A stretch of 64,000 bases of DNA from an uncultured Candidatus Peribacteria bacterium (GCA_964624905.1 CAZUYK010000003.1:7923-71922); one strand, 5' to 3'. Shown: positions 30,507-61,528, counted from the stretch's first letter. Notes: a model not told the origin generated them from the letters alone. Translations and numbers: made by a program.

Positions 30507-32999
30507 TCAGGCTGCGCGGCGCCTCTGGTGCGCCGCCAGTTTGAAGCACTCAAGCGCCATGAATCCCGCTACGGCGACGCCGAGGATCACGGCCCAATCG
30601 CGGATGGTGATCGGGGATATGTCGAAGAGGACGTACGTCGGGGGCGAGAGCAGGATGCCGACCTGCAGGAGCAGGGGGATCAGGACGGCCCCGAGCAGCC
30701 ACTTGTTCGAGAAGAACCCGATGGTCCACAGCGGGCGCGAACTGCGGCTGGTAAAGGCGAGGAGGATTTCGAAAAGAATCGAGAACGTGAACACGATGGC
30801 GCGGACCTTGGGCAGGTTTTCCTCGCCGAACCACACCGTGCTGGCCTTCAGATACACAAGGAACGTGAGTCCGCATGCGAGGATGGCACCGAGGAGCAGA
30901 CGCGGCCACTCCCCCGCGAAGAGGCTTTCCCTCTGCCTGCGCGGCTGGCGCTGCATGATGCCAGGTTCCTCGTTTTCCATACCCAGGGCGAGTGCCGGCA
31001 GGCCGTCGGTCATGAGGTTGATCCAGAGCAAGTGGACGGGCAGCAGCGGCAGCGGCAGGCCCATGATGACCGTAAGCGTGATGAGCGCCATCTGCCCCAG
31101 GTTCGCGCGTACGAGGTACAGGATGAACTTGCGGATGTTGTCGTAGATACGCCGTCCTTCGCGGATCGCCATGACGATCGTGGCGTAATTGTCGTCGGTG
31201 AGGACAAGGCTCGCCGCCTCGCGCGCCACCTGCGTTCCGTCGCGTCCCATCGCGATGCCGACGTGCGCGGCTTTCAAAGCGGGCGCGTCGTTCACGCCGT
31301 CCCCCGTCATTGCCACCACGTTGCCGTGCGATTGCAACGCCTTGAGGATATCGATCTTGTGCTGCGGCGACACGCGCGCGTAAATGGACACGTACTGCAC
31401 GGCATCCTTCAGCTGCTCAGGCGTCATGCGGTCCAGCGCGGCGCCGTCGAGCGCGTGCCCCTTGATGCCGACCTTCCTGGCGATCGCGGAAGCGGTATCC
31501 ACGTTGTCGCCCGTGATCATCACGGTGCGGATGCCGGCGGACGCGGCGTCCCTCATGGCCCGCATCACTTCCTTGCGCGGGGGATCCTGCATACCCATAA
31601 GCCCGATCAGACGGAGTTCGCCCTTCTCCTCCATGGCCATGGCGAGCACGCGGAGTCCGTTGCCTGCCATACGCATGGTCTGGGCAAGCACCTCGGCTTG
31701 GTCGCAATGGTCGCAAAGCGCGACGATCTTCTCGGGCGCGCCTTTCATGAACAACCTGGGACCGTGGCGGGTCTGCATGTACTTCAGCTCGGATGAGAAC
31801 GGCACGGTTTCCTCGTCGATATCCAGGCGCTCGATGCCCTTGCCCTTGGCGTAATGGAGCAGTCCGATCTCCGTGGGATCGCCCAGGTTCGGCAGCGACG
31901 CGCGATTGCAGGAAATGGCGATCTGCACGAGCAACTTTTCGCTTTCCCCTTCCGCCACCCATATTTCCGTCACCTTCATCTTGTTTTCGGTAATCGTCCC
32001 CGTCTTATCGGAACAGATGATGTTGACGCTACCCAGCGTTTCGAGCGCATCGAGCCGCATGACGAGCGCGTTCTTCGCGGCCATGCGCTTCACGCCCATG
32101 GCAAGGCACGCGGTCACGACTGCGGGCAAACCTTCGGGCACGGCGGATACCGCGAGACTGACGCCGAGCAGCACGACGGACAACGCCGGTTCGCCGCGAT
32201 TCCATTGCAATACCGCGAGCGCGGCGCTGAGCGGGACGACGACCGCCCCGATGAGCGCGCTGAAATGCTTCATGCGGTTTTCCAGCGGCGTCGGCGGGGT
32301 TTCGGATTGCGTGACAAGCGTGGCGATGGTGCCAATCTGCGTATCTTTTCCGATGGACGTGACGACGTACTCGGCGGACCCGCGCGTGACGAGCGTTCCC
32401 GCGAAGAGCATGTTCTTCTGGTCGCTGATCCCGGCCTCGCGCGGTACGGCATCGCTCGTTTTCCCTGCCGGCAAACTCTCGCCGGTCAGGCTCGACTCGT
32501 CCGCCTCGGCATGAGACAACTCCAAAATGCGTCCGTCGGCGGAAATACGGTCGCCCGCTTCGACGATGACGATGTCCCCGGGAACAAGCTCGCGCGACGT
32601 GATGAGCATCTCGCGGCCGGCCCTGCGCACGCGTGCATGGGGGGACGTGAGATCCTGCAAACTCTCCAGCGCCTTCCCTGCGCGGTACTCCTGCACGAAA
32701 CCGAGGACGGCATTCAGGATGAGAATGGCGAGGATCGCCCCGATGTCGACGTTCTCTTCCCAGGACCCCGAGCCCTCCAACACGCGCAGCGCGATGGAGA
32801 GGAACAGCGCGACGATGAGGATATACACCAAAATATCCTGGAACTGGCGCAGGAACAGGAAGATCAAACTCTTCTTCTTATGCGGCAGTTCGTTCCATCC
32901 GTGCTCCCTCCGTTTCAACTCAATGGACGCGTCGTCCAACCCCTCGCGGAAACTCCCGAGACGGATGAGCGTTTCGTCCGATGACAGCGAGTGGAACAT
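30507..32999 (-). CDS. P-type cation-transporting ATPase (P2/Ca2+-type)
   Basis: ICSDKTGTITENKM, MITGDN and MTGDGVNDAPALK, with 10 TM helices. Confidence 0.95.
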   Translation of the reverse strand: MFHSLSSDETLIRLGSFREGLDDASIELKRREHGWNELPHKKKSLIFLFLRQFQDILVYILIVALFLSIALRVLEGSGSWEENVDIGAILAILILNAVLGFVQEYRAGKALESLQDLTSPHARVRRAGREMLITSRELVPGDIVIVEAGDRISADGRILELSHAEADESSLTGESLPAGKTSDAVPREAGISDQKNMLFAGTLVTRGSAEYVVTSIGKDTQIGTIATLVTQSETPPTPLENRMKHFSALIGAVVVPLSAALAVLQWNRGEPALSVVLLGVSLAVSAVPEGLPAVVTACLAMGVKRMAAKNALVMRLDALETLGSVNIICSDKTGTITENKMKVTEIWVAEGESEKLLVQIAISCNRASLPNLGDPTEIGLLHYAKGKGIERLDIDEETVPFSSELKYMQTRHGPRLFMKGAPEKIVALCDHCDQAEVLAQTMRMAGNGLRVLAMAMEEKGELRLIGLMGMQDPPRKEVMRAMRDAASAGIRTVMITGDNVDTASAIARKVGIKGHALDGAALDRMTPEQLKDAVQYVSIYARVSPQHKIDILKALQSHGNVVAMTGDGVNDAPALKAAHVGIAMGRDGTQVAREAASLVLTDDNYATIVMAIREGRRIYDNIRKFILYLVRANLGQMALITLTVIMGLPLPLLPVHLLWINLMTDGLPALALGMENEEPGIMQRQPRRQRESLFAGEWPRLLLGAILACGLTFLVYLKASTVWFGEENLPKVRAIVFTFSILFEILLAFTSRSSRPLWTIGFFSNKWLLGAVLIPLLLQVGILLSPPTYVLFDISPITIRDWAVILGVAVAGFMALECFKLAAHQRRRAA

Positions 33000-33951
33000 C
33001 GGCAGTGATTATATTGTTTTATTGTAGTTGTAACCACTTCTAGGAGTGGATTAAGTGAGTTATTTGCTTTTTAAATATGATAATGAGATCATAAGAATCC
33101 ACGGAAACAAACCGTGTCAACGAATCGCCACAAAACTTCGAGACGAAAAGTCAGAAAGAGACCCCTAATACAAATACAATTGATGTTAGAGAAGGGATTC
33201 GTGTTGTTGTAGAAAACCAAGAAAAGATAAATGGCAATTGGCTTTATGCAAAACCTGTTTGGCAGTTCATCCAAGATGCAAAAAATGGAACATTTCTCAG
33301 TGATAGTTTAGTCGAAGAATATATTCGAACATTTCATCACGAGCCACCAGAAGCAGAAGTTGAATCATGGAATCGGTCATTAATTTCAATAGCGAATCTT
33401 CTTGAGAGAGCAGAATTTTTCAATCAATTTATATTTTTGGAATATTTGATTCCATCGAATAATGAAAACCCCAGAAGAATTGATGTTGCAATAGCTGGAA
33501 CCGATATAAATGGAGATGAGCATTTGGTGCTTTGTGAGTTAAAACAATGGCAGGCATGTGAAATGGAGGAATCGATCGATTCAGACAAGATAAGAATTAA
33601 AATAAATAAAAAACTTATGAATGTTTTACACCCATCAATACAACTCGATAACTACGAACGCCAGATGAAAGAGGTTTTAGAAAAATGCGGCCGAGATGAT
33701 TCATTTCTAAAACTGCATTCATTTGTTTATTTTCACAATGAAAATTACCTCTCAAAACAAAAACAGGAAATTCTTTTTGCAGAGAAATTCAGAGAAAAAA
33801 CTGATACAACTAAGATTTATACAAGAAAATTTGATAGAAAAATCATTAAATTGTTAAGAGAAAAAGTAGGAGCTGGACATGGCCTTATGGTTGCAAGAAA
33901 ACTGCAATATCTTCAAGGAAAATACTTGCAGCTACTTAATGCAAAATAATC
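33000..33951. other. AT-rich compositional islet
   Basis: There is a visibly abrupt drop in GC between the ATPase start (32999) and the typA stop (33952). Confidence 0.7.
33077..33949 (+). pseudogene. decayed DUF2075-type gene: N-terminal PD-(D/E)xK-like domain only
   Basis: ATG at 33077 followed by an in-frame TAA at 33092. The same frame stays open from 33095 to 33949 with no ATG/GTG/TTG before 33437. The translation EVESWNRSLISIANLLE...FLEYLIPSNNENPRRIDVAIAG...LVLCELKQW...VLHPSIQLDNY matches the DUF2075 N-terminus. No P-loop ATPase half follows. Confidence 0.6.
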
Positions 33952-35763
<1,812 letters not shown>

Positions 35764-35850
35764 ACGAAAGAGGGTCAAAAAAGCATCCCGAAATCGGGAG
35801 CCACCCTTATAGTGTGTAAAAGGCCGAAAATCAATCGAAAATGGCTGTTT

Positions 35851-38632: not shown

Positions 38633-40369
38633 TCACCTTCCCTTCCCCAACCATGCCTCGAACTTTTTCAAGGGCAAGGTGTTCAGCACATCGGCTTTAG
38701 TCAGCCATCCCCGCTGCGCCTGGGTGATGCCGTAGACGTAGTTGAGCTCGCCCGGATTGTGCGCGTCGGCGTTGATGATGAGCGTGCATCCCAGGTCCTT
38801 CGCACGCTTGCAGAGCACATCGTTCAAGTCCAGGCGATCGACGGACGCACTCACCTCCAGGGCCACCCCGCTCTCGGCCGCCGCGCGGAACACCTTGTCC
38901 ACGTCGAAGTCGATGGGATCGCGCTTGAGCAATTTCCGCGCGGTAGGATGCGCCAACAACCGGACGTGGGGATTCTCGATGGCGCGCAGAAGACGGTTCG
39001 TCATGTCCTCGCGCGACATCTTGAAGTTGCCGTGGATGGACGCGACCACCCAATCCAGCTGGGCCAGCACCTTGTCGTCCAGGTACAGCGATCCGTCATC
39101 CAAGATATCCACTTCGGTTCCCGCGAAGATGCGGATGCCCGGCACGGCCTTGCGCGCTTTCTCGATGAGCTTCAGGTATTCCTTGATGTTGCCTTTCTTG
39201 ATGCCGGCCACCATGCCCATCGGGGAGGCATGGTCCGTGATGGCTATGTACTCGTGCCCGTGGTCCAGCGCGGACTTGGCCATCTCCGTCATCGTCGCGC
39301 TTCCGTCGCTGAAGTTGCTGTGCATGTGCAGGTCCCCGCGCAGGTCCGCCGCCTCGATGAGTACGGGCAACTCCCCTTTCATCGCCAACTGCACTTCTCC
39401 GCGGTCCTCGCGCAATACCGGCGGAACGTACGAGAGCCCGACCGCCTTGTATACGTCTTCCTCGGTACACGACGCGAGCAACTTTCCCTTTTTCTCGGCG
39501 GTTCCCTTGTGCACCCCGTATTCGTTGATGGTCATCCCCTTCTTGATACCCAGCGAACGCACCGCGACGTTGTGTTCCTTGCTGCCGGTGAAGTAGTGCA
39601 GGGCCGCGCCGAACACTTCCTCGTCCACCACGCGCAAGTCCGCGTTCACACCGGCGCTCAGCTGCACGCTGGATTTTGTCTCTCCTTTACCCAGCACCCG
39701 CTCCACCAACGCGTAATTGCAGAACACATCCATCACTTTCTCGGGATGCTTGCTGCTCACCAAGATATCGATGTCCCCGATGCTCTCTTTCCTGCGCCGC
39801 ACGCTTCCCGCAACCTCGATGTTCGTGCACAGCTTCGTCGCCTTCAGCTCCATCACGATATTCTCCGCGATCTTCAACGCGACGGGTAATGCGATGCGCG
39901 ACCCGTGGGACTGCATGGACTGGATACCGAGCAACACGTTCTGGATGCTCTTCTCGCCCCAGTTCTTCACCCCTTCCAACTTCCCGGATTCCATGAGCTT
40001 CTTCAGGTCCGCGACGGTCTCCACCTTGTATTCCTTCCACACGAAGTGCGTTTTCTTGGGACCCATCCCTTGGATCTGCATGATGTCGAAGAGTCCCGGC
40101 GGCACCTCCTTCAGCATCTTCTCCAAGTACTCCAACTTCCCGGTGTTCACCAACTCTTCGATCTTCGACGCGAGATCCTGCCCGATGCCCGGGATCTCCA
40201 TGAGACCATCGGTCCCCTTCTCCTTATAGATGGATGCGAGATCCTCCGTGAGCGACAAAATGGTCATCGCCGCGCGGTCGTAAGCGCGAATGCGAAAGGG
40301 ATTCTCGTCTTTTAAGGTGAGTATTTTTCCAATACGCTCGAAGATGGAGGCGATCTCGGCGTTGGTCAT
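38633..40369 (-). CDS. polX: DNA polymerase X family with C-terminal PHP domain
   Basis: The N-terminus [32 protein letters not shown] (HhH), the pol-beta palm [17 protein letters not shown], and PHP motifs HMHSNFSDG...ITDH. Confidence 0.9.
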
Positions 40370-40420
40370 ATAACCAGGATATGCCAAAAGAGCCGATGAG
40401 AAAACGTGTTATCTTTGCTT

Positions 40421-42052
40421 TCACTGAAGTGGCAATTCCACAAAGAATGTGGTGCCCTTCCCTTCTTCACTTTCAAACCAGATCTTTCCACCCTGGGCTT
40501 CCACGGCACCCTTGGCGACATAGAGTCCGAACCCGTTTCCATCAACGGTGTTACGGACGTTGCTTGCACGGAACAGTTTGCCGAAGATCTTCTCTTGGTC
40601 TGCCTTCGGGATACCTACTCCCGTATCCTTCACGACACAGTGTAATGTATTGCCAGTGATAGTAACCGTGAAATCAACTTCTCCTTTCTCCGGAGTGTAT
40701 TTCACGGCATTACTCAGAAGGTTCTCGATTGTCATATGCGTATAACGCTTATCAAGTTTGGCAATAGGTAAAGTGGCAGGCAACATCTTCACTAAGCTTA
40801 CCTTCTTTTCCAAAGCTTTAGGCTCGATGATCTCCAATATCTCCTTGAAGAAGCCATTCAGATCGAGCTCTTGTTTCTCGATGTGCATCTTACCAAGCTG
40901 AATGCGTGATACATCAAGAATCATGCTCACAAGATCGGATAGATTGGCTGAAACTTCCTGCATAGAAGTAACGTGCTTCAACTGTTCATCCGTCAACTTT
41001 CCTAGGTCACCATCTTTCATCATTTCTAGATACCACTTCACTGAAGACACCGGAGTGGCAAGCTGGTGACTAACGATACTAAGAAGTTCGTCCTTCTGAC
41101 GATCTAAATCTTTAAGCTGAGAGTTCGCCAATTCTAAATCATGGGCGAGTTTTTCAATTTTTTCACGAGCTTTAGCTTCCCTCCTTTCGCTTCGCACTAA
41201 GAGAACTCCAAATCCAAGAGACAAAATGAATGTAAGAACGGTTAATGTTTTATCGGTCGCATTGTCTAAGAAAAAGAATTGAGAGCCCACCATGATCACC
41301 AGTGTGTATGCAAGCAACTGTGATCCGATCAGCTTAATTTTGAAAATTTCCAAATTAATAACTGCATAAATAATCATGAACAAGAAAACAGGTAGCACGA
41401 ACAAGCTATAAAGATTTATTTCATAGATTCCTGTTTGACTCGAAATATATTCAGTAACCGCAAATGTTGCGAAGAACAAAGTTAGTGCGGATGCAACAAT
41501 AATAATTTGAACTCTCTTTGCACCCACTACCTTCCTTCCTTTAAGGAAGGCAAAAACCATAATGAACGCAATAATCAAATACTCAATAATAAGCTTGAGT
41601 TCTGTTAGCAATTCACTGTTATAAGCTTCGCAAACTGGCTGATAAAAATCGCTGATTGAATTATTAGTTACAGTTATTAACCATGCTGGCAGCGTTGCAA
41701 CAACTAGAGCAAGTTTTGCCCATTTTGAGAGATCTTTCTCTGTAACTAATACAACAAAGAAATACGCTCCTAAAATATAAAAGGCAATATTCAAATAATC
41801 CAAAGGCGCCCAAAAAAATGACACTAGATGATAGTTTGGAGAAGTCCATGTAACCACATCTCCAATTAGCCATAAACAGAATGATCCAGTAAACGCAGTA
41901 AAGATTTTCGATAAGAAGGAAAATTTCGATTTTACTAAAACGAAAATGCTAACAAGAATTGTGAGAAATAATGGAATACAATGTGAATACAGGGCTATCG
42001 TGTGATAGTCTTTTGTAGTTTCAAAGCAGGTGTTTAGGATATTTAAATCCAT
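40421..42052 (-). CDS. sensor histidine kinase with about 7-TM N-terminal input domain
   Basis: HisKA H-box LSIVSHQLATPVSS. HATPase_c has the N box LLSNAVKYTP plus DTGVGIP and GNGFGLYVAKG. There is no response regulator in the window. Confidence 0.9.
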   Translation of the reverse strand: MDLNILNTCFETTKDYHTIALYSHCIPLFLTILVSIFVLVKSKFSFLSKIFTAFTGSFCLWLIGDVVTWTSPNYHLVSFFWAPLDYLNIAFYILGAYFFVVLVTEKDLSKWAKLALVVATLPAWLITVTNNSISDFYQPVCEAYNSELLTELKLIIEYLIIAFIMVFAFLKGRKVVGAKRVQIIIVASALTLFFATFAVTEYISSQTGIYEINLYSLFVLPVFLFMIIYAVINLEIFKIKLIGSQLLAYTLVIMVGSQFFFLDNATDKTLTVLTFILSLGFGVLLVRSERREAKAREKIEKLAHDLELANSQLKDLDRQKDELLSIVSHQLATPVSSVKWYLEMMKDGDLGKLTDEQLKHVTSMQEVSANLSDLVSMILDVSRIQLGKMHIEKQELDLNGFFKEILEIIEPKALEKKVSLVKMLPATLPIAKLDKRYTHMTIENLLSNAVKYTPEKGEVDFTVTITGNTLHCVVKDTGVGIPKADQEKIFGKLFRASNVRNTVDGNGFGLYVAKGAVEAQGGKIWFESEEGKGTTFFVELPLQ

Positions 42053-42071
42053 CTGAACATTATATCATTTT

Positions 42072-42881
42072 TCAGTCCTTTATACAATCCAGCACTTTTA
42101 ATGAATAATTGCTCCAGAACGCTTCATTTTGACTTTCTAAGGGCAATAAAGAAACTATTAAAGGCTTCTTTCCTGTTTTTTTCCACATATCAAAAAATGC
42201 AGGAAGAAAGATCTCTTTAGTAAAATTCAACTCTTCTCCGGAAAGAATAAAATTCTCAAATAAGATTCCGTTTCGGATAAACAAAGAAATATACTTCAAA
42301 TAGTACTCCCTAGCATATTTACCGGCTCTAAAAAACCAGTCAGATGCATCATATAAATAATTGTTTTCACCAGGGTATATCGCGTCTAAAAGTTCATGAT
42401 GAAAAGAAACTAATGGCTGACCCCACGTGGTCACAATTTCATTAATTTTTCTCCCTTCATTCTTTTGAAGATCTATCACCTCTTTAGGAATAATATTACT
42501 TGATCCCTTTATTTCTTCTTGAAAGATTAATTGGCCCAAAGCAAATTTAATAGGATTTTTTTCTGTGAATTTGTCGTTCAAATATTCAAATATTACAGGA
42601 TCGCAACTTGATCCTTTTATTTTATTCAAGAAATAAGATAATTCATAATTCGGAGTACACAATTGCCTAAACAAAACAGCTCGAGGAGCTTCAAGAAGTG
42701 GTCCGGGTATATCTCCTTTTAAATATTCATATACTTTTTTTTCTAGCTCTTTATCAGCCCATCTTTCTGTTATTTCAAGGACAGCTTCTTCAAAGGGGGT
42801 GTAAATAAAACTATTAAACTTCTCATTATCGGAAACGAGTTCATTAAGACTCAATTCATTTAGATTTAATTCTTCTTTCAT
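42072..42881 (-). CDS. hypothetical cytoplasmic protein (orphan)
   Basis: 269 aa with no TM helix or signal peptide. AT-rich, and 5 nt after the upstream gene. Confidence 0.65.
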   Translation of the reverse strand: MKEELNLNELSLNELVSDNEKFNSFIYTPFEEAVLEITERWADKELEKKVYEYLKGDIPGPLLEAPRAVLFRQLCTPNYELSYFLNKIKGSSCDPVIFEYLNDKFTEKNPIKFALGQLIFQEEIKGSSNIIPKEVIDLQKNEGRKINEIVTTWGQPLVSFHHELLDAIYPGENNYLYDASDWFFRAGKYAREYYLKYISLFIRNGILFENFILSGEELNFTKEIFLPAFFDMWKKTGKKPLIVSLLPLESQNEAFWSNYSLKVLDCIKD

Positions 42882-42886
42882 TTAAG

Positions 42887-43234
42887 TCAGTTGATAGTAG
42901 TACAATCATCGCCTGCTTCCGAATCACACTGGATCTGTTCACATTGTATTGTACCATTTTTACACTCCTCAGTACAGTAATCATCAGTACATTTAGCAAA
43001 ATCATACGCCTTAATATAAAACTCCTTGTATTCAGAGAGTCCATTAGGAGGGCATTCATCAGGATTGGAGCAATCCCTGGTAAAACAAATTTCCTTTTTT
43101 GAATCACATTCAGCTTCAATAATAAAATTATAATCTTTTAAATAATAATATTTATAAAAACTTGAAATCACCGGAGCGGCCAATACTACAATAAGCAACG
43201 TTAGGAATCCGAACCTTTTTATTGAATTAGCCAT
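42887..43234 (-). CDS. small exported/anchored Cys-rich protein (10 Cys)
   Basis: N-terminal hydrophobic anchor FGFLTLLIVVLAAPVI, followed by 10 Cys within about 75 aa. Confidence 0.6.
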   Translation of the reverse strand: MANSIKRFGFLTLLIVVLAAPVISSFYKYYYLKDYNFIIEAECDSKKEICFTRDCSNPDECPPNGLSEYKEFYIKAYDFAKCTDDYCTEECKNGTIQCEQIQCDSEAGDDCTTIN

Positions 43235-43293
43235 AATAAATGTATATTCTTAACTAGTTTATTTTACAAGCAGAGTTTGGTTTCAAAAAGCAT

Positions 43294-43866
43294 TTATATT
43301 GCTTTGATAATAAAATTCCATATTGCTTGAACAATTGTAATTCCAAGATAAACAGCCAATGTCCAGTAGGCATTTCCGATGATGATGCTTGTAATAAAGA
43401 TCTTCCAATCGCGTTTTGAAAGACCATTAAACTGATGAGCACCATGCCTGATGTGAATAACCGTAATAAACGGATCGAATTTTATAGATAAAAAAATCAA
43501 TAAAACTGCATCACTTTTTTTCATTATCCATGCGCTTATCTCACCAATATAATTGATAATTTTAATGATAGACCTCTTAAATTCATTTTCTGGAAGTGGT
43601 CTTGGCTTGAAATCCTCGATTTCTTTAAGTGTCTCGATGCCTAACCAATCTTTTTTTGTTCCATCATAAAAAAGTATTAATCCATAACAGAGTAAAAATG
43701 ATAAAAAGGTCATTACTACACCCCCAACTAAAATTCCATAAGTTGAAAGTACAACTGGATAGAGTAGAAAATCGAATGCCCATGAAATAGCCCATTTACC
43801 GAAGATACCAACACTTATGGTTCCAAACCTTTTTGTAAGCCTCTCAAACCTACTATAATTTCTCAT
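43294..43866 (-). CDS. membrane protein (about 4 TM), orphan
   Basis: 190 aa with hydrophobic helices at both ends and a charged central loop. Confidence 0.6.
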   Translation of the reverse strand: MRNYSRFERLTKRFGTISVGIFGKWAISWAFDFLLYPVVLSTYGILVGGVVMTFLSFLLCYGLILFYDGTKKDWLGIETLKEIEDFKPRPLPENEFKRSIIKIINYIGEISAWIMKKSDAVLLIFLSIKFDPFITVIHIRHGAHQFNGLSKRDWKIFITSIIIGNAYWTLAVYLGITIVQAIWNFIIKAI

Positions 43867-43919
43867 ATATCAATTTTAATTCAAAAGGCTTTGCTTAACT
43901 AGATCAGCACACTAACGAT

Positions 43920-45464
43920 TTATACAAATGATCTATTAAAGGCAATAAACCTTAATCCAATAAATAATAGGAAGAATCCAAAAAAGTAGTAGAAAACATT
44001 AAATGTTTGACTAACTAATTTATTTAAATCACTTGCATTAATATCGACCCCAACAATCGCAATAACATCATTGTTATTATTTTTTATAGGTGCTGCGCCT
44101 GAAATAAAAGTACCCCAATCATCAGAATAAGGCTTGGAATCTGCGCCAACCTCGCCATTTAATGCTAACGCAAAAGAACCTTCATTGACACTATCTTTAT
44201 ATAAATCTCCGAAAGAAGAAGGAGAGCGGTTAGCACTACTTACAAAAGTAGTATGTGGCATGACATCAATTATAAATTGCAATACTTTTGGATCTTTTGT
44301 TGGTCTCAATATATAAGCATATTGGATATCTGCATTACTGTTAATAATTGAATTAATTGATTTAGCAATTTTTTTGTATTCTTGCTTTTCAACATCCATC
44401 GTTGTTTGAATTTGATTAATATCACTAGCATCAAAGTACCCTGCGCCCGTTGCAGCAATTGCTTTTACTTTTTCCTGAATTTTCTCTAAATTTAGAGATA
44501 AATTTTGTTGGTAGAGAAAAAAAGTTACAATTCCTGCAAACAAATTACATAGTAGAAAAAAAATTATACTGCTTGGACTCAAGAAGAACTCCCTCACTTG
44601 CGAAAGCACCTTCGTTTTCGTCGGCACCGCCATCGGCACAGAAACGACTGGCAATGGATTGAGATCCACTACCGGCTCCACCCCCTCGTCGGGGTGCTGC
44701 AACTTCATGTTCCAGAGCCTCTCGAAGAACTGACGCTCGCGTTCAGCGAGTTCCTTATATTCGATAAAGCACGCCTCCTGCGTTTCATGCTGGAAGCAGG
44801 CAACCGTATTTCCGACGACGATCTTCTCAAAGGCGAACGGATACAGGTTCTCGTTCACAAGTACAGTCTTCCTGTATTCGAACGGATCCCTGTTCTGGAA
44901 TCGACGCCCAAGCGGCGTGTTGTGCGCGATGACACGGAGGAAGATGTTTCTCTTCCGACGCTCGCGGAAATACTGCACATTGAACTCCCGCAGAGGATCT
45001 TCCGTTTCCGTATAGAGAATCGGGCCGTACTGTACAAAGTCATTCCCCTTTTCCAGGAGAAGCGTGTATGCCTTCTTCAATCCCTCGACACCTTGGAAGA
45101 ACTGCATCTCTGGCCGCTTTTTCCCGGACGTAATGGAAGAAATGAATGATTCGAAGTTTTGGTGGCGCAGTTCCAGGACATTCTTTTTCTGCTTCATGTC
45201 ATCCTGCAGCCACTTCGACACGGATTCCAACGAATGAAGAACGTACTTCGGCGTGCCATTAATCATCTCGCGAACGACTATCTTCTTTTTCAGAAGTTTC
45301 TTCATGGCCTGGTCCAATACCCCCGTGCTCTTTCCCGTCTTGAACGCAAGGTCTCGCAGGGTCATGGCATCCCCTTCCACAAGCTTTTTAATAATGGCGA
45401 TCTCCGTGCCGGAGAAGCCCGCCTCTTGGAAATACGTCTCGATGCTGGAAGGGAGGCTGTTCAT
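43920..45464 (-). CDS. TrmB-like wHTH regulator fused to TM + Cache-like extracytoplasmic domain + C-terminal TM
   Basis: The N-terminus AGFSGTEIAIIKKLVEGDAMTLRDLAFKTGKSTGVLDQAMKKLLKKKIV is a TrmB-type HTH. TM helix at IIFFLLCNLFAGIVTFFLY. Cache-like pattern DIQYAYILRP...PYSDDWGTFISGAAPIKNNNNDVIAIVGVDI. Terminal TM. GAGGAG SD before the ATG. Confidence 0.75.
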   Translation of the reverse strand: MNSLPSSIETYFQEAGFSGTEIAIIKKLVEGDAMTLRDLAFKTGKSTGVLDQAMKKLLKKKIVVREMINGTPKYVLHSLESVSKWLQDDMKQKKNVLELRHQNFESFISSITSGKKRPEMQFFQGVEGLKKAYTLLLEKGNDFVQYGPILYTETEDPLREFNVQYFRERRKRNIFLRVIAHNTPLGRRFQNRDPFEYRKTVLVNENLYPFAFEKIVVGNTVACFQHETQEACFIEYKELAERERQFFERLWNMKLQHPDEGVEPVVDLNPLPVVSVPMAVPTKTKVLSQVREFFLSPSSIIFFLLCNLFAGIVTFFLYQQNLSLNLEKIQEKVKAIAATGAGYFDASDINQIQTTMDVEKQEYKKIAKSINSIINSNADIQYAYILRPTKDPKVLQFIIDVMPHTTFVSSANRSPSSFGDLYKDSVNEGSFALALNGEVGADSKPYSDDWGTFISGAAPIKNNNNDVIAIVGVDINASDLNKLVSQTFNVFYYFFGFFLLFIGLRFIAFNRSFV

Positions 45465-45591
45465 AGCTCCTCACTCTACGGGACAAGGTTTTATGAAACA
45501 AACACGCGTTCCACTCACGGAATACGGCACGTGAGAAATAGCTTCCAAAAGCCATGGTTACCGTTCCACACCCCCTCGGAACGGAAGCCCC

Positions 45592-46623
45592 TTACACATT
45601 ACCCATCATCAATTCCAACGTCTCTTCGTTGATAAGCCCCTTCTTCTTCAGATCCTTCAGATCTGCCTCGAAGGAACGCATGCCCAGCTCCTTGCCTGTC
45701 TGGAGGACGGATGCCAACTCCTGCACGCGGTTATCGCGGATGATGTTCTGCGCTGCCGGCGTGTTGATGAGCACTTCGCGGAGAGCCACGCGTCCCCCGC
45801 CTTCCTTCGGCAGAAGCTTCTGGGCGATGATCGCCTTCAGGGACAGCGCAAGCTGCGAACGAACCTGCGGCTGCTGGTGCGGCGGGAAGACATCGACGAT
45901 GCGGTCGATGGTCTGCATGACATTCGGCGTATGGAGCGTCGCAAGAACCAGGTGACCCGTTTCGGCAAGCGTGAGGGCCGCGGCGATCGTTTCGGGATCG
46001 CGCATTTCACCCACCATGATGATGTTCGGATCCTGGCGCAGGATGCGCTTCATCGCCTCGGGGAATGACAGGAAGTCTTCCATGTACTGGCGCTGGCGGA
46101 TGACGCCCTTGCCCTTCGGGAAGAGGAACTCGATGGGGTCTTCCAAGGTGATGATGTTCTCCGCGCGCGAGTCATTGATGCTCTGCAAAAGCGCCGCGAG
46201 CGACGTGCTCTTTCCGGATCCCGTGGGACCCGTGAACAGGATGAGTCCTTCGCGAAGTCCCACGACCTGCGTCGCGATGTCCGTGAGATCGACATCCGCG
46301 AGACTGGGGATTTCCGTGGGAATGATGCGAGCGGCGATGGCCATGTTGCCGCGTTCGAAGTGGCAGTTCACGCGGAGACGGACGCCGTTGGGCAATCCGT
46401 GGGCCATGTCGATTTCCTTCTCTTTCTGGAAACGCTCGAATGCGGGGGCGCCCAGGAGGTCCTTCACGAATGCTTCCACCTCCTTCGGACTCACGTCGGT
46501 CTGCGTCTGCGGCGTAAGCACGCCGTCGATGCGGAACAATAAAGGAGCACCGGCGACGATGTGGACGTCGGATGCTTTGGCCGCCAGGGCTTTTTCGAAT
46601 ACGGAATCGGGAAGGGAAGACAT
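45592..46623 (-). CDS. pilT: type IV pilus retraction ATPase PilT
   Basis: Walker A GPTGSGKST, then EDPIEF, MVGEMRD and ATLHT. Confidence 0.9.
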   Translation of the reverse strand: MSSLPDSVFEKALAAKASDVHIVAGAPLLFRIDGVLTPQTQTDVSPKEVEAFVKDLLGAPAFERFQKEKEIDMAHGLPNGVRLRVNCHFERGNMAIAARIIPTEIPSLADVDLTDIATQVVGLREGLILFTGPTGSGKSTSLAALLQSINDSRAENIITLEDPIEFLFPKGKGVIRQRQYMEDFLSFPEAMKRILRQDPNIIMVGEMRDPETIAAALTLAETGHLVLATLHTPNVMQTIDRIVDVFPPHQQPQVRSQLALSLKAIIAQKLLPKEGGGRVALREVLINTPAAQNIIRDNRVQELASVLQTGKELGMRSFEADLKDLKKKGLINEETLELMMGNV

Positions 46624-57504: not shown

Positions 57505-58401
57505 ATGTTACAAACACTCTTCACCCTCTTCTCGGTCGTCTTCATCATCTGGGTCGTGTTCGGCACGGAGGCCGGTGATGCGAAAGGAGACAAAAAGAAA
57601 TCCGATGGAAAAGGCGGCGGTCTGCTGATCGGTTTGCTGTTCGCGCCGTTCGTCCTCATCGGATGGCTGATGTTCGGACTGGGCCAGATGGCATTGGTCC
57701 TTGCGCAGGCGATCGCCGCGCTGTGGGAAATGATCACGCCGATGTTCCGCACGATCTTCGAATGGATCGGGAAACTGATCGAATGGATCGTGAAGATGAT
57801 CAAGGGACTCCTCAAGAACCTGGGCCCGATCTTACGCGGACTGGCCAAGACGATGCGCTACGCATTGCGCACGCTCTGGAACGCGGTCTCGGGGATTATC
57901 AGCGCCATCACGGGCTTCATCCGATCCGTCTTCTCGTTCATCGGCGATCTCATCCGCGATTTCCCGGGCTTGCTACGCACCATGGGCACCGTCCTGAAAC
58001 CACTCGCATGGCTGCTGAGGATGCTGCGCGACGCGTTCGGAACAATCCTCGATGCATTCTTTTTCCTGATAGGCGGGATGCTCGCATGGATCGGGATGCG
58101 CCACAAAAAGACGAAGGACTACGTCACCCGCGATATCGAGGAAACAGATCCGACCGACCCCGCGGATCTCCTGCTCGCCGTTCCGCTTGCGGTGGCCACC
58201 GGAGCGAAGCGCACGAAGAAACGGTTGAAGGAAACGAAAGAAAGAAGCGGCATCGGTTTGTTCCCGAAAACGGCACGCCTTGTGGCGACGAACCCGATGA
58301 AGAAGGGTATCACCCAGAAGAAAAAGGCCTCCGACCCGCACGTGATGAAGCGCCTCCAGCACATCGGCTGGGAGACCAGGCGGAAGATGGGAAGGGCATA
58401 A
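57505..58401 (+). CDS. membrane protein with amphipathic repeats, unknown function
   Basis: 298 aa with several TM or amphipathic helices and a basic C-terminal tail. Confidence 0.6.
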   Translation: MLQTLFTLFSVVFIIWVVFGTEAGDAKGDKKKSDGKGGGLLIGLLFAPFVLIGWLMFGLGQMALVLAQAIAALWEMITPMFRTIFEWIGKLIEWIVKMIKGLLKNLGPILRGLAKTMRYALRTLWNAVSGIISAITGFIRSVFSFIGDLIRDFPGLLRTMGTVLKPLAWLLRMLRDAFGTILDAFFFLIGGMLAWIGMRHKKTKDYVTRDIEETDPTDPADLLLAVPLAVATGAKRTKKRLKETKERSGIGLFPKTARLVATNPMKKGITQKKKASDPHVMKRLQHIGWETRRKMGRA

Positions 58402-58503
58402 GCCTGACTGTTTGTATTAGTATGGTAACGAGGGGGTTACTGAATTCTATATTTTGGCCTCCGAGTTTGGTACGAGTAAACATCGCAAAATGCTATTATC
58501 ACG

Positions 58504-59064
58504 ATGATGTCTAGCAGCTTACGTAAGGCCATCAGCGAATCGAGAGTAAACGGCGAAGAGCCAAAACTTCAAAAAGAAAAAATGGAAGTTTTAAGAAGCC
58601 AATATCCTGATTTGTCATGTGAATTTGTGAGATCATTTGAAGAGCCATTCTCATGTTTTATTTTTGGTTTAGGCTTGAGTTCAAATCAAAAAGCAATCAG
58701 GAATGATCCACGGTTATTTTTTCAATTCCAAGATAAAGATTATTTTGAATCCGACAGTTTGGCAGTGAGGCTCTTCGAATATTGCCTTACACCTTGCGCA
58801 AAAGAGGAGTGTGAGAATGGAGACTTGGTTCTGTATTTTAACAAAAGTAATTGCGGATTTATTTCCGCATCGCATGCAGGGCAAATTGAAAATGACCTAA
58901 TTGTATCCAAGTGGGGCCATTCACCTTCCAATTGTGTATGGAGACATAAACTTGAGCATGTACCCGTGACCTACCAAGACGAAACAGGGAATGTTTCAGC
59001 TCGCTTCTTCAAAATTGATCGTGATCTTTTGGCATCCTATTTGAATGCAAATTGTATTTATTGA
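58504..59064 (+). CDS. hypothetical protein (AT-rich islet)
   Basis: 186 aa. It contains GDLVLYFNKSNCGFISASHAGQI...SKWGH, a Cys/His pattern of uncertain meaning. Confidence 0.55.
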   Translation: MMSSSLRKAISESRVNGEEPKLQKEKMEVLRSQYPDLSCEFVRSFEEPFSCFIFGLGLSSNQKAIRNDPRLFFQFQDKDYFESDSLAVRLFEYCLTPCAKEECENGDLVLYFNKSNCGFISASHAGQIENDLIVSKWGHSPSNCVWRHKLEHVPVTYQDETGNVSARFFKIDRDLLASYLNANCIY

Positions 59065-59345
59065 ATAATACTTGAACCTGAAGCGCTGGTGTTATTTAGA
59101 ATTTTAGATTCGATCTCGCTAACTCTTAGATCAAGGTTATACATTTGAAATAAAGTCAGTCCCAATGTTGCAATCGTTGCGATAGCTAAGATCCAAGTAG
59201 GACGAATAAGTTCAGCTTGCAATCGATGGTCGAGAGCAATTTTCGCCATAATAAATTCTGGCGAACCAGTTGGCTGATTGCCAAGAAATTGGATATTTTC
59301 TCTCTTCGAAGCCTTTAGTTGCCTTTCTAATAAATTTGGATCCAT
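59058..59345 (-). CDS. small membrane-anchored protein (AT-rich islet)
   Basis: Trimmed to MDPNLLERQ because the upstream part of the ORF overlaps the tRNA. One TM helix, WILAIATIATLGLTLF. Confidence 0.45.
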   Translation of the reverse strand: MDPNLLERQLKASKRENIQFLGNQPTGSPEFIMAKIALDHRLQAELIRPTWILAIATIATLGLTLFQMYNLDLRVSEIESKILNNTSASGSSIIQ

Positions 59346-59367
59346 CAGTGTTCTAGTAAACCCTATA

Positions 59368-59454
59368 TGGTGCCGTGGAGAGGACTCGAACCTCCACAAG
59401 ATTACTCTTACACGCCCCTCAAGCGTGCGCGTCTACCAATTCCGCCACCACGGC
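59368..59454 (-). tRNA. tRNA-Leu (anticodon GAG)
   Basis: The reverse complement is GCCGTGGTGGCGGAATTGGTAGACGCGCACGCTTGAGGGGCGTGTAAGAGTAATCTTGTGGAGGTTCGAGTCCTCTCCACGGCACCA. It has a 7-bp acceptor stem, anticodon loop TT-GAG-GG, a long variable arm, a T-arm GGAGG-TTCGAGT-CCTCT (terminal G-T pair) and an encoded CCA. Confidence 0.95.
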
Positions 59455-59560
59455 ACGTGGTTTTGTTCGCGAGGGATTTCACAATGAAAGAAAGACCGAG
59501 GGCCAAAGTGTACCAATATTAACACGCAGGGCAACCCGGAATTAGCCTTCCTGAGGCTAT

Positions 59561-61528
59561 TTAAAGGCTTTTTTCCTCCGCTCCTTCTACCGGAGCGATG
59601 ACTTTCTTCTTTGTCTTGCGCTTCGTCTCGATCGCCTCGGCGGAGGTCTTTCCTTCGAACAGCTCGATGAATTCCTCGGCACTGAGCGTCTCTTCCTTCA
59701 TCAACACCACCTCGATGCTGCGGAGCTTGTCCTCGTGCTTCACGAGCATGTCCATGGCGCGCTTGTACTGCGCGTCCAAGGTCGTCTTCACGAACGTATC
59801 GATCTTGCGTGCGCTTTCCTCCGAGTAGTTGCGTGCCAGGTGCGGATCCACGCCCGTGGCCGTCATGCCGTTGGATTCGCCGTAGGCCACGAGTCCCAGT
59901 TCCTCATCCATGCCGTAACGCATCGCCATGTTGCGGGCGATCAGCGAGGCGCGCTCGATATCGTTGGATGCACCCGTGGAGATGTCGTTGAAGATCAGCT
60001 TCTCCGCGGCACGGCCTGCGAGGAGTCCGCAGATCTCATCGAGGAATTTGTTGCGGCTGGTGGTGTACTGGTCTTCCTCCGGCAAGAACCACGTGACGCC
60101 CAGGGCTGAGCCGCGCGACACGATGGAGACCTTGTGGAGCTTGTCGGATTCCTTGCAGAGGTGGCCGACGATGGCGTGGCCGAGTTCGTGATACGCCGTA
60201 ATCTCCTTTTCCTTCTGCGTCAGCTTGCGGGACTTGCGTTCGGGGCCGATGCTGACTTTTTCGAGGGCATCCACGATATCCTGCTGCGTGATGCTCTTGC
60301 GGTTGCGCTTGGCGGCGAAGATGGCGGCCTCGTTCATGACGCTCTCCAGGTCCGCTCCCGTCATGCCCACCGTCTGGCGGGCGATGGCGTTGAGGTCGAT
60401 ACCCTTGGCCAGCGGCTTGTTGCGGGCGTGCACGGCCAGGATTTCCTCGCGTGCATCGATGTCGGGCTTATCCAGGTAGACGTGGCGGTCGAAGCGGCCC
60501 GGACGCAGCAATGCGCTGTCGAGAACGTCGGGGCGGTTCGTGGCGGCCATGACGATGACGTTCGTGCCCTGCTCGAAACCGTCCATTTCGGTAAGGATCT
60601 GGTTCAATGTCTGCTCGCGCTCGTCGTGTCCTCCGCCGAAACCGGCACCTCCGCGCTGGCGGCCCACGGCGTCGATTTCATCGATGAAGATGATGCACGG
60701 CGCGTTGCGCTTGGCGCGGACGAACAGGTCGCGGACGCGGGACGCTCCCACGCCGACGAACATTTCCACGAATTCGGAACCGGAGATGGAGAAGAACGGA
60801 ACGCCCGCTTCGCCGGCGACGGCGCGCGCGAGCAAGGTCTTGCCCGTTCCCGGCGAACCGACCAGCAACACGCCCTTCGGGATCTTCGCGCCGATATCGA
60901 GGTATTTCTTCGGCGCCTTCAGGAAGTCCACGACTTCGACAAGCTCCTCCTTTGCCTCCGCCACGCCCGCCACGTCCTTGAAACGCGTCTTCACTTGCTT
61001 GGCGTCCGCCACGCGCGCGCGGGACTTTCCGAACGACATGGCGTTGTTCTGGCTGCGCGAGATGCCCCGGAAGAGCCAGACCACTCCTCCTATGACCAAT
61101 ACGAAGAAGAGGAGATCCGGCAAGACGGCGAAGAACATGTTCGCCGCTTCGCGATTCTCCACCTGCACGACGGTCGGGTTCCTGGGATTGTTCCAGCCGA
61201 GCTGGCTGACGGTATCGAGGGTCTCCTTGTAGGACTGCAATACGACGCCCGTGGACGTCGTCGCGTAGACCTTGTTGTCGCGGACGAGGATCTTGCTGAA
61301 CCTGCTCTCGTTGTACCCCTTCGTAATCTCGCTGATGGAAACCTCCTTGGCCATCGCGTACTGCTCCTCCTGGCCGCGCTCGGGGGCGGTGAGGTAATAG
61401 AATGACAACGACAAAAGGGACGCGAAGAGAAGTAGGCTCAGGAGCCATTGCTGTCGGTTACCCGGTGATCTGCGCGGCGTCATTGGAATACGTCGCATTG
61501 TAGCGCGTTTTCGGCGATAGTCACGCAT
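59561..61528 (-). CDS. ftsH: ATP-dependent zinc metalloprotease FtsH
   Basis: Walker [12 protein letters not shown] region, and HELGHA zinc site. Confidence 0.95.

Follow-up and report, generated by a model that had tools for sequence, protein, structure and literature searches.

A string of five genes on the minus strand of a 64,000-nucleotide stretch of DNA from an uncultured Candidatus Peribacteria bacterium (GCA_964624905.1, CAZUYK010000003.1:7923-71922; hereafter the window) carries an AT-rich block whose edges lie inside the two terminal genes, which encode a membrane-anchored regulator and a histidine kinase. This block is probably one allele of a class-wide and long-lived hypervariable island of the replacement type, exchanged by homologous recombination. 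The reading is built on composition steps, a codon-sharp break in identity to a relative, turnover of the cargo genes, incongruent histories of the modules and a pattern that recurs throughout Peribacteria, an uncultivated lineage of the Candidate Phyla Radiation (CPR).

Composition and identity steps inside two signalling genes

Sliding-window GC content is 28-43 % over approximately 40.65-44.55 kb, against 52-64 % in the flanks and a mean of 55.6 % for the 64 kb; with its limits set at 40.6-44.6 kb, the block has 30-34 % GC and the backbone 55-62 %. Together with the GC content of third codon positions (GC3), this confirms that the block is real, lies where a preliminary description had placed it and has both edges within sensor genes. 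At the left, the open reading frame (ORF) of the regulator (43920..45464, minus strand) encodes 514 residues arranged as a winged helix-turn-helix (wHTH), a transmembrane (TM) helix, a Cache-like domain and a second TM helix. GC3 is 0.62-0.78 over residues 1-280 and 0.12-0.40 over residues 281-514, with the maximum-likelihood change-point at codon 295 (~44,579; GC3 0.70 before it and 0.20 after). The log-likelihood ratio (LLR) of 67.8 compares with a highest value of 8.4 in 500 permutations, and ranks first among 39 ORFs of at least 200 residues (median LLR 3.6). The switch had been put at 44585-44600, which is correct to about 10-20 nucleotides, and at the start of the first TM helix; the step falls four codons before TM1, predicted at residues 299-317 (TM2 at residues 490-508). 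The gene is thereby divided into a cytoplasmic half (residues 1-295; 44580..45464, minus strand), made up of the wHTH and a TrmB-type C-terminal domain and ending in REFFLSP, and a TM1-PDC/Cache-like sensor-TM2 half (residues 296-514; 43920..44579, minus strand), which is an AT-rich hypervariable allele.

Identity to relatives, whose loci are designated here by L numbers, breaks in the same place. Against close relatives the regulator shows 95-100 % amino acid identity up to about residue 280 and 20-60 % thereafter; taken by halves, the cytoplasmic part is 95-98 % identical to L007, L002 and L004, and the sensor part (residues 296-514) 37-44 % identical to close relatives. In a codon alignment of the window with L007, near-identity extends through AGG GAG TTC TTC TTG AGT CCA (REFFLSP); at the next codon the two diverge at once, with third positions passing from G/C to A/T. 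The divergence breakpoint (~44,575) and the change-point fall within a left junction of 44565..44590. Judged from the alignment, this codon-sharp break is what a junction formed by recombination at a conserved motif would look like.

The right-hand gene (40421..42052, minus strand) encodes an ordinary HisKA/HATPase_c kinase (Pfam E = 3.8e-11 and 6.5e-27, respectively) with a 7-TM input, about seven TM-like segments being predicted. GC3 is about 0.3 over residues 1-240 and 0.33-0.68 thereafter. The change-point lies at codon 328 (~41,068), at the H-box of HisKA, with an LLR of 10.5 (permutation p < 0.002), so that change-points are statistically supported within both ORFs. It separates the input half (HKin; residues 1-328, 41069..42052, minus strand; GC3 0.33), AT-rich and of cassette type B, from the HisKA and HATPase_c output half (HKout; 40421..41068, minus strand; GC3 0.53), which forms a right-hand transition zone. 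A rise in GC through the kinase output had been described and is found, but the return to backbone level is not: GC3 at the HATPase end is 0.46-0.68, against ~0.8. In the kinase as in the regulator, identity breaks coincide with composition breaks, since HKin is unalignable with that of close relatives (2-27 % identity) and HKout retains 55-100 % amino acid identity to them.

Between the two genes AT-richness continues, as described earlier, through three middle ORFs (o190, o115 and o269; GC3 0.17-0.33) and into the 7-TM kinase half. The source is a metagenome-derived CPR genome and Logan contigs break at the island edges, so that the pattern might reflect a chimeric assembly or bin of GC-rich and AT-rich organisms, or else the amino acid composition of membrane proteins. 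An independent Logan contig, L001, corresponds to window positions 39162-45480 and is 100 % identical over both edges; L086, a second strain from another sample, corresponds to 40,298-44,604 and is 96.6 % identical without gaps. It follows that the block is no artefact of assembly; reading frames are intact across the junctions in independent assemblies drawn from several samples and projects. An assembly chimera is ruled out by these independent contigs and samples. A membrane-protein bias is ruled out as well: since o269 has no predicted TM segment, its low GC is regional and synonymous, and third positions are also shifted in cytosolic enzymes of relatives (SpeE, Aldedh and methyltransferases), while membrane proteins of the same window, such as the P-type ATPase at 30.5-33.0 kb, are GC-rich. 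The preliminary description had already argued in this sense, and an artefact of either kind is extremely improbable. The two ends of L086 coincide with the edges of the AT-rich block, and L001 ends ~0.9-1.2 kb past them, in the 5' end of the regulator gene and in the PolX gene. The breaks of L086 suggest branching of the assembly graph among co-existing strains or species with common flanks and different cassettes. Sample SRR12487045 contains both the window organism and the species of L003.

The regulator is of the one-component type and anchored in the membrane. In Foldseek, the first 260 residues match the TrmB-family fold over its full extent (TrmBL2; 5bqt, 5bpi and 5bpd; E = 3e-9 over ~260 columns); the Pfam TrmB match is sub-threshold (E = 0.0076), and PF01978 is precomputed on many homologues. 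For the sensor half, Pfam MCP-like_PDC_1 (E = 2.4e-4) and dCache_1 (E = 1.2e-3) both score below their gathering thresholds, and Foldseek gives weak matches to the sensor domains of KinD, TlpA and PacA (E = 3-7e-3), with a structure model whose pLDDT is below 50 over residues 403-441. The family profile (A1) gave no useful match against sequences of the Protein Data Bank (PDB). Of the domains named in the preliminary description, the TrmB-like one was thus correctly called and the Cache-like one (PDC/Cache) probably so. Full-length homologues occur throughout Peribacteria (40-72 % identity at ~100 % coverage), which makes the wHTH-TM-Cache architecture ancestral rather than a new fusion, and the majority exceed the window protein in length, their sensor being repeated two or three times. 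What was replaced in the regulator is therefore one allele by another of the same domain family, and not one kind of input by a new kind. Several loci carry tandem duplicate or partial copies of the gene: L019 (-75..+2276 and +2273..+4516 from the regulator start), L049 (-9..+1538 and +2088..+4244), and L051 and L077, each with a partial copy upstream.

Cassette turnover in the close clade and across Peribacteria

The conserved flanks are a PilT-like T2SSE ATPase on the left (45592..46623, minus strand; Pfam T2SSE E = 8.5e-47; GC3 0.67-0.90) and PolX on the right (38633..40387, minus strand; Pol beta-like and PHP domains by Pfam; GC3 0.60-0.93), both syntenic in relatives. The closest relatives (L002/L003, L004, L005/L006 and L007) share the frame LigA-orf83-PilT-regulator-[variable]-kinase-PolX, visible from PilT to PolX in L002/L005 and L007; in L004 and L006 the PilT gene is cut off at the contig start. 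Against L007, PilT is 96.5 % identical in amino acids and 75 % at fourfold degenerate sites; PolX is 88-92 % and 58-62 % identical to L007, L002 and L004, and 84 % and 52 % identical to L006. Over the close clade, fourfold identity is 59-75 % in PilT, 52-62 % in PolX and 38-69 % in the regulator's N-terminal part (RegN), by which measure the species of this clade are not very close.

In every close relative GC3 of the orthologous regulator drops at about codon 280, over four species from 0.65-0.93 to 0.12-0.40. In L004 it passes from 0.75 through 0.30 to 0.17. In all of them the AT-rich tract extends through the cargo. The cargo itself differs: AdoMetDC, EamA and SpeE (spermidine synthase) with an inverted kinase in L002, an aldehyde dehydrogenase (Aldedh) in L004 and L006, and a methyltransferase in L007. 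The island thus sits at one locus with the same conserved neighbours on either side, and its contents are largely non-homologous between lineages.

The cargo of the window comprises o190 (43294..43866, minus strand; GC3 0.20-0.33), a multi-TM membrane protein; o115 (42887..43234, minus strand), with one TM-like segment at residues 8-26 and 10 Cys, probably secreted or surface-exposed to judge from these features; and o269 (42072..42881, minus strand), cytosolic and of unknown fold, which accompanies the 7-TM kinase input. None of the three has a Pfam, NCBIfam, PADLOC or PHROG family, and with PADLOC and PHROGs blank a defence-system or phage origin of the cargo was rejected. The preliminary description had regarded them as orphans; they are instead conserved as partners within cassettes, both in distant Peribacteria and in other CPR. 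Homologues of o190 stand at the same position in L010 (66 % identical) and L051 (62 %), those of o115 are known from 9 loci and have an o269-like gene and a 7-TM kinase next to them in each, and o269 has 181 homologues across CPR, including Paceibacterota and Parcubacteria. The AlphaFold2 model of o269 is confident (pLDDT 93.3, predicted TM-score 0.90) and found no significant fold match in the PDB with Foldseek (best E = 0.047, TM-score at most 0.26), so that the protein may represent an undescribed fold. In L018 (+2785..+4149, the regulator start being locus position 10001) a 454-residue ORF fuses an o269-like protein to a SET-domain methyltransferase, and stand-alone SET-like proteins are found in the islands of about seven other species (L011, L013, L025, L052, L057, L079 and L082); the SET assignment was made by eye from the motifs NHSCDPN...EELTxDY...CxC and not by a Pfam run.

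Two types of kinase input occur in Peribacteria. Type-A kinases have ~480 residues (470-490), and type-B kinases have 537-590 residues and 7 TM segments and are always accompanied by o115-like and o269-like genes, o115 co-varying with HKin. The kinase of the window is type B, and those of all its close relatives are type A. The extracytoplasmic domain of type-A kinases (for instance L081, +2674..+4131 from the regulator start) is paralogous to the regulator sensor, with the common motifs AYIMR...EFVADADSL...DQW...APIxD...GIDV; in most species, therefore, the same kind of sensor domain stands at both island edges.

How general is this arrangement? A scan of the class, in which each species was represented by a single genome, yielded 79 Peribacteria loci. 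In most of them regulator GC3 is lower after TM1 (for example 0.81 to 0.42, or 0.85 to 0.46), and the clade of the window is the extreme case. With the regulator start as common zero point, GC deviates from the upstream backbone by a mean of 0.00 from upstream to +500 nucleotides, -0.08 at +1000 and -0.11 to -0.13 at +1500 to +4500, returning to 0 near +9500; in 29 of 45 species-level loci a tract of at least 1.5 kb lies at least 0.07 under backbone GC, starting at +1000. A common layout is a regulator whose GC3 goes from high to low, small AT-rich genes, and a kinase whose GC3 goes from low to high. Most islands carry metabolic cargo, and recurrent genes encode EamA exporters (13 loci), o269-like, SET-domain, o115-like and AdoMetDC-like proteins, NNMT/PNMT-type and class-I methyltransferases, and ABC transporters. 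For one AdoMetDC homologue of Peribacteria, ornithine decarboxylase activity has been demonstrated (PMC10407285). A 2016 paper that describes complete genomes of Peribacteria (PMC4736985) makes no mention of the locus.

Further features lie at the outer sides of some loci. On the far side of the island in L010, L012, L013, L025, L056, L063, L071 and L083, at about +6000..+11500 from the regulator start, lies a minus-strand ORF of 1000-1770 residues, a third gene with a composition gradient inside it (GC3 from ~0.8 to ~0.5 towards the island; L056 0.84/0.51). AT-rich tracts of 31-44 % GC also stand upstream of the regulator in L043 (-6000..-2000) and L023 (-4500..-500), where the locus may sit between two islands.

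Proposed exchange, divergence and the AT-rich state

The recurrence of the block bears directly on its origin. The preliminary description had inferred a foreign cassette recombined in-frame into resident signalling genes; the in-frame exchange of inputs holds up, and the one-off foreign insertion does not, as the same block with the same left edge is found throughout the class. In favour of a single acquisition from a low-GC donor, in-frame into two resident genes, are the sharp contrast in composition, the lack of Pfam families for the three middle genes and the fact that the families of the 7-TM kinase and of o269 extend to other CPR lineages, most of them AT-rich (Paceibacterota, for example). 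Yet the pattern stands at the same codon in species with ~50 % fourfold divergence in the flanks, the other loci are not near-identical insertions from one donor pool, and the regulator architecture was there beforehand. Nor did a search of 5.8 billion proteins turn up a recent donor, either for the kinase or for the cassette: the best full-length kinase is 69 % identical, and the only near-identical o269 (97 %) belongs to the same cassette in a sister strain. The exchanges are therefore old or their donors unsampled. Hallmarks of mobile elements are absent, with no tRNA, integrase or flanking repeats at the block edges and no recombinase among the five genes, by which an integrative element was also rejected. 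Taken together, a single foreign acquisition is very improbable.

The histories of the modules speak for exchange between lineages. HKin matches best L065 (66 %), L010 (65 %), L038 (60 %), L083 (59 %) and L056 (56 %), o269 matches best L010 (50 %) and L065 (47 %), and o115 matches both of these at 56 %, giving for the three an order of L010~L065>L038>L083~L056. The order for HKout is L007 (87 %), then L056/L083/L020 (73-74 %), and far behind them L010 (55 %) and L065 (47 %). In Mantel tests over ten type-B loci, HKin correlates with o269 (r = 0.81, p = 0.001) and not with HKout (r = -0.10, p = 0.71), and HKout does not correlate with RegN (r = -0.09). The kinase is therefore a mosaic whose input travels with the cargo, and the incongruence between modules that was looked for is present.

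The output half of the kinase adds a qualification. Despite 75-90 % amino acid identity, its fourfold sites have reached saturation in comparison with every close relative (27-39 % identity; 87 % and 30 %, respectively, against L007), where PilT and PolX retain 52-75 %, and its GC3 spans 0.31-0.84 among five close-clade loci. HKout is thus kept by protein constraint and is not the resident backbone DNA that had been supposed. The earlier proposal that inputs were exchanged in-frame and outputs kept stands for both edge genes; in the kinase, the output is conserved as protein and its DNA is not resident.

In the mechanism that we favour, the regulator (wHTH, cytoplasmic domain, TM helix, Cache-like sensor, TM helix) and the histidine kinase bracket a variable set of cargo genes, and the exchanged AT-rich unit would consist of the TM/sensor half of the regulator, the cargo and the input half of the kinase, sometimes the whole kinase. 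Cassette alleles would be swapped between lineages through homologous recombination, with crossovers in the conserved DNA of the output modules: on the left in the cytoplasmic half of the regulator, up to the REFFLSP codons, and on the right in the HisKA/HATPase region or in the next backbone gene. Sensing and cargo would then change together, with DNA-binding and kinase outputs remaining as they were. The co-variation of sensors with exporters, amine- or S-adenosylmethionine-linked enzymes or a Cys-rich protein suggests lineage-specific sense-and-respond cassettes, in which sensors and cargo would share a joint functional specificity.

Alternatively, the sensor and cargo segment may have been inherited vertically and diverged rapidly in situ, under diversifying or relaxed selection. 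Once too divergent to recombine, it would escape the force that raises GC, be it GC-biased gene conversion (gBGC) or selection, and drift to an AT-rich mutational equilibrium, the edges being the points where protein conservation restores DNA homology. Composition favours this reading. The lowest 2-kb GC of the island is 0.365 +/- 0.04, without correlation to host GC over 0.35-0.68 (r = -0.03, p = 0.84), and the cytoplasmic half of the regulator follows backbone GC (r = 0.67). Among orthologues GC3 of HKin is always 0.21-0.42, and that of HKout spans 0.19-0.90, in step with the GC of the DNA past its 3' end (rho = 0.73, p = 7e-5), a correlation that rests on 23 loci because the regular expression for the H-box missed 13 of 33 kinases. 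Furthermore, the window differs from L010 about as much in the cassette as in the backbone. Such a process is nevertheless hard to reconcile with non-homologous cargo in species that share 90-98 % protein identity in the flanks, with kinase inputs that cannot be aligned inside a close clade, with a break against L007 that shows no decay gradient and with the uncorrelated histories of kinase input and output. Between the window and L086, moreover, nucleotide identity is even, at 95-98 % over the whole 4.3 kb (~3 % strain-level divergence within the island), which argues against local hypermutation; hypermutation of the kind produced by diversity-generating retroelements was rejected on this ground, together with the lack of template-like repeats and the difference of whole genes between species. 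As an account of the whole island, divergence in place is rather unlikely, although the same process may have caused the AT-richness even if cassettes are also exchanged.

Some observations weigh against the exchange of cassettes as we propose it. On the right side, composition in the window changes gradually and not at a sharp junction. The nearest kinase and the nearest allele of the regulator sensor (69 % and ~43 % identical) leave the proposed exchanges without a recent donor, and no recent exchange was observed between otherwise near-identical genomes. Cassette proteins of the window are 50-66 % identical to those of L010, much as backbone proteins are (RegN 55 %, PilT 64 %), which is compatible with vertical descent of the cassette in the lineage of the window and replacement in its sisters; the species tree is represented here by RegN alone as a proxy and not by a multi-gene tree. 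The kinase has no receiver-domain partner within the 64-kb window (tblastn with PhoB, CheY and Spo0F receivers, E <= 1), and the putative functional link between regulator, cargo and kinase is drawn from conserved adjacency only. A scan for promoters and terminators returned promoter-like sites at chance level and terminator-like sites that were uninformative.

Why does the island remain AT-rich? As its GC is independent of that of the host, AT-richness here is maintained without amelioration, and is not a fresh foreign signature. A recombination-linked force that raises GC has been described (PMC4450053). Composition follows position relative to the island edge, as would be expected if such a force needs homology within the population, and this gives a hint of the cause. 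A shared pool of AT-rich cassettes is an alternative that is compatible with it.

Other stretches of low GC occur in the window. A second AT-rich patch (33000-33950; 28-38 % GC) lies between the P-type ATPase (30507..32999, minus strand) and BipA/TypA (33952..35778, minus strand) genes and contains one ORF of 170 residues (33437..33949, plus strand) with only a faint PHROG match. Since the two neighbouring genes are ~50 bp apart in L002, the patch is a private intergenic insertion with ordinary edges, and was ruled out as an instance of the same phenomenon. GC is moderately low (0.46-0.49) at 58000-60000, where the only tRNA of the 64 kb, a tRNA-Leu (GAG), is located (59368-59454), and at 1-1000.

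Relation to known systems and meaning for Peribacteria

The island resembles replacement flexible genomic islands, such as those for O-antigen or glycosylation, for which exchange by homologous recombination has been proposed (Lopez-Perez, Martin-Cuadrado & Rodriguez-Valera 2014, PMC4033161). It occupies the same chromosomal position in all relatives with different and often non-homologous gene sets, concerns exposed cell structures, has atypically low GC, and would likewise be exchanged through its conserved flanks without integrase or att sites. Differently from those islands, its edges are in-frame within genes, at domain boundaries of two signalling proteins, so that protein modules and not only genes are swapped. 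The contents are sensors, small-molecule enzymes and exporters instead of glycosyltransferases, and the pattern is kept over a whole CPR class and not just among strains of one species.

Two variable signalling regions offer further parallels. The hypervariable region of staphylococcal agr covers the C-terminal part of agrB, agrD and the sensor part of agrC (PMC10482373). There, as here, the variable segment starts within a gene, covers a gene for a small secreted product (probably secreted, in the case of o115) and ends in the sensor half of a kinase with a conserved core. No homology to AgrB, AgrD or AgrC was found (Pfam matches in the kinase are limited to HisKA and HATPase_c, and the cargo has none), and the left-hand gene of Peribacteria is a DNA-binding regulator with its own sensor, with cargo that is often metabolic; there is no evidence that o115 is a signal or the system one of quorum sensing. 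In the comQXPA pherotypes of Bacillus, ComX and the N-terminal domain of ComP are divergent (PMC4624242, citing Tran et al. 2000). Both systems have a multi-TM kinase input that co-varies with adjacent small genes, while the C-terminal part of the kinase and downstream components are conserved. However, the block has neither a ComQ-like isoprenyl transferase nor ComX (Pfam is blank for o190, o115 and o269) and no response regulator adjacent to the kinase, and exchange would take place between species and genera and not between strains.

The regulator is like the TrmB family (TrmBL2, PDB 5bqt) in that its N-terminal 260 residues comprise a wHTH, a long helix and a C-terminal domain, and unlike it in that a TM helix joins this part to an extracytoplasmic Cache-like sensor, followed by a second TM helix. 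To our knowledge, no TrmB protein of this membrane-anchored architecture has been characterised.

Domain-level exchange of cassettes in signalling proteins would thus be a stable, class-wide feature of an uncultivated CPR lineage, in which output modules act as recombination anchors and sensor modules with their cargo as the exchanged unit. This suggests a way for tiny genomes to diversify sensing without duplicating regulators. The locus also carries protein families without a known fold, such as o269, and provides an unusually clean system to ask why hypervariable and accessory DNA is AT-rich. More speculatively, and at present with the odds against it, Peribacteria and perhaps CPR more widely may keep a plug-and-play sensory locus, whose fixed outputs serve as recombination docks for matched sets of sensors and cargo. 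If so, the insulated AT-rich state, which does not ameliorate, would itself be part of the mechanism, arising from missing GC-biased conversion where homology is lacking or from an AT-rich pool, and the locus would be a natural experiment on the AT-richness of flexible DNA. The exchanged sets would then define lineage-specific recognition of a signal, a partner or a host in these episymbionts.

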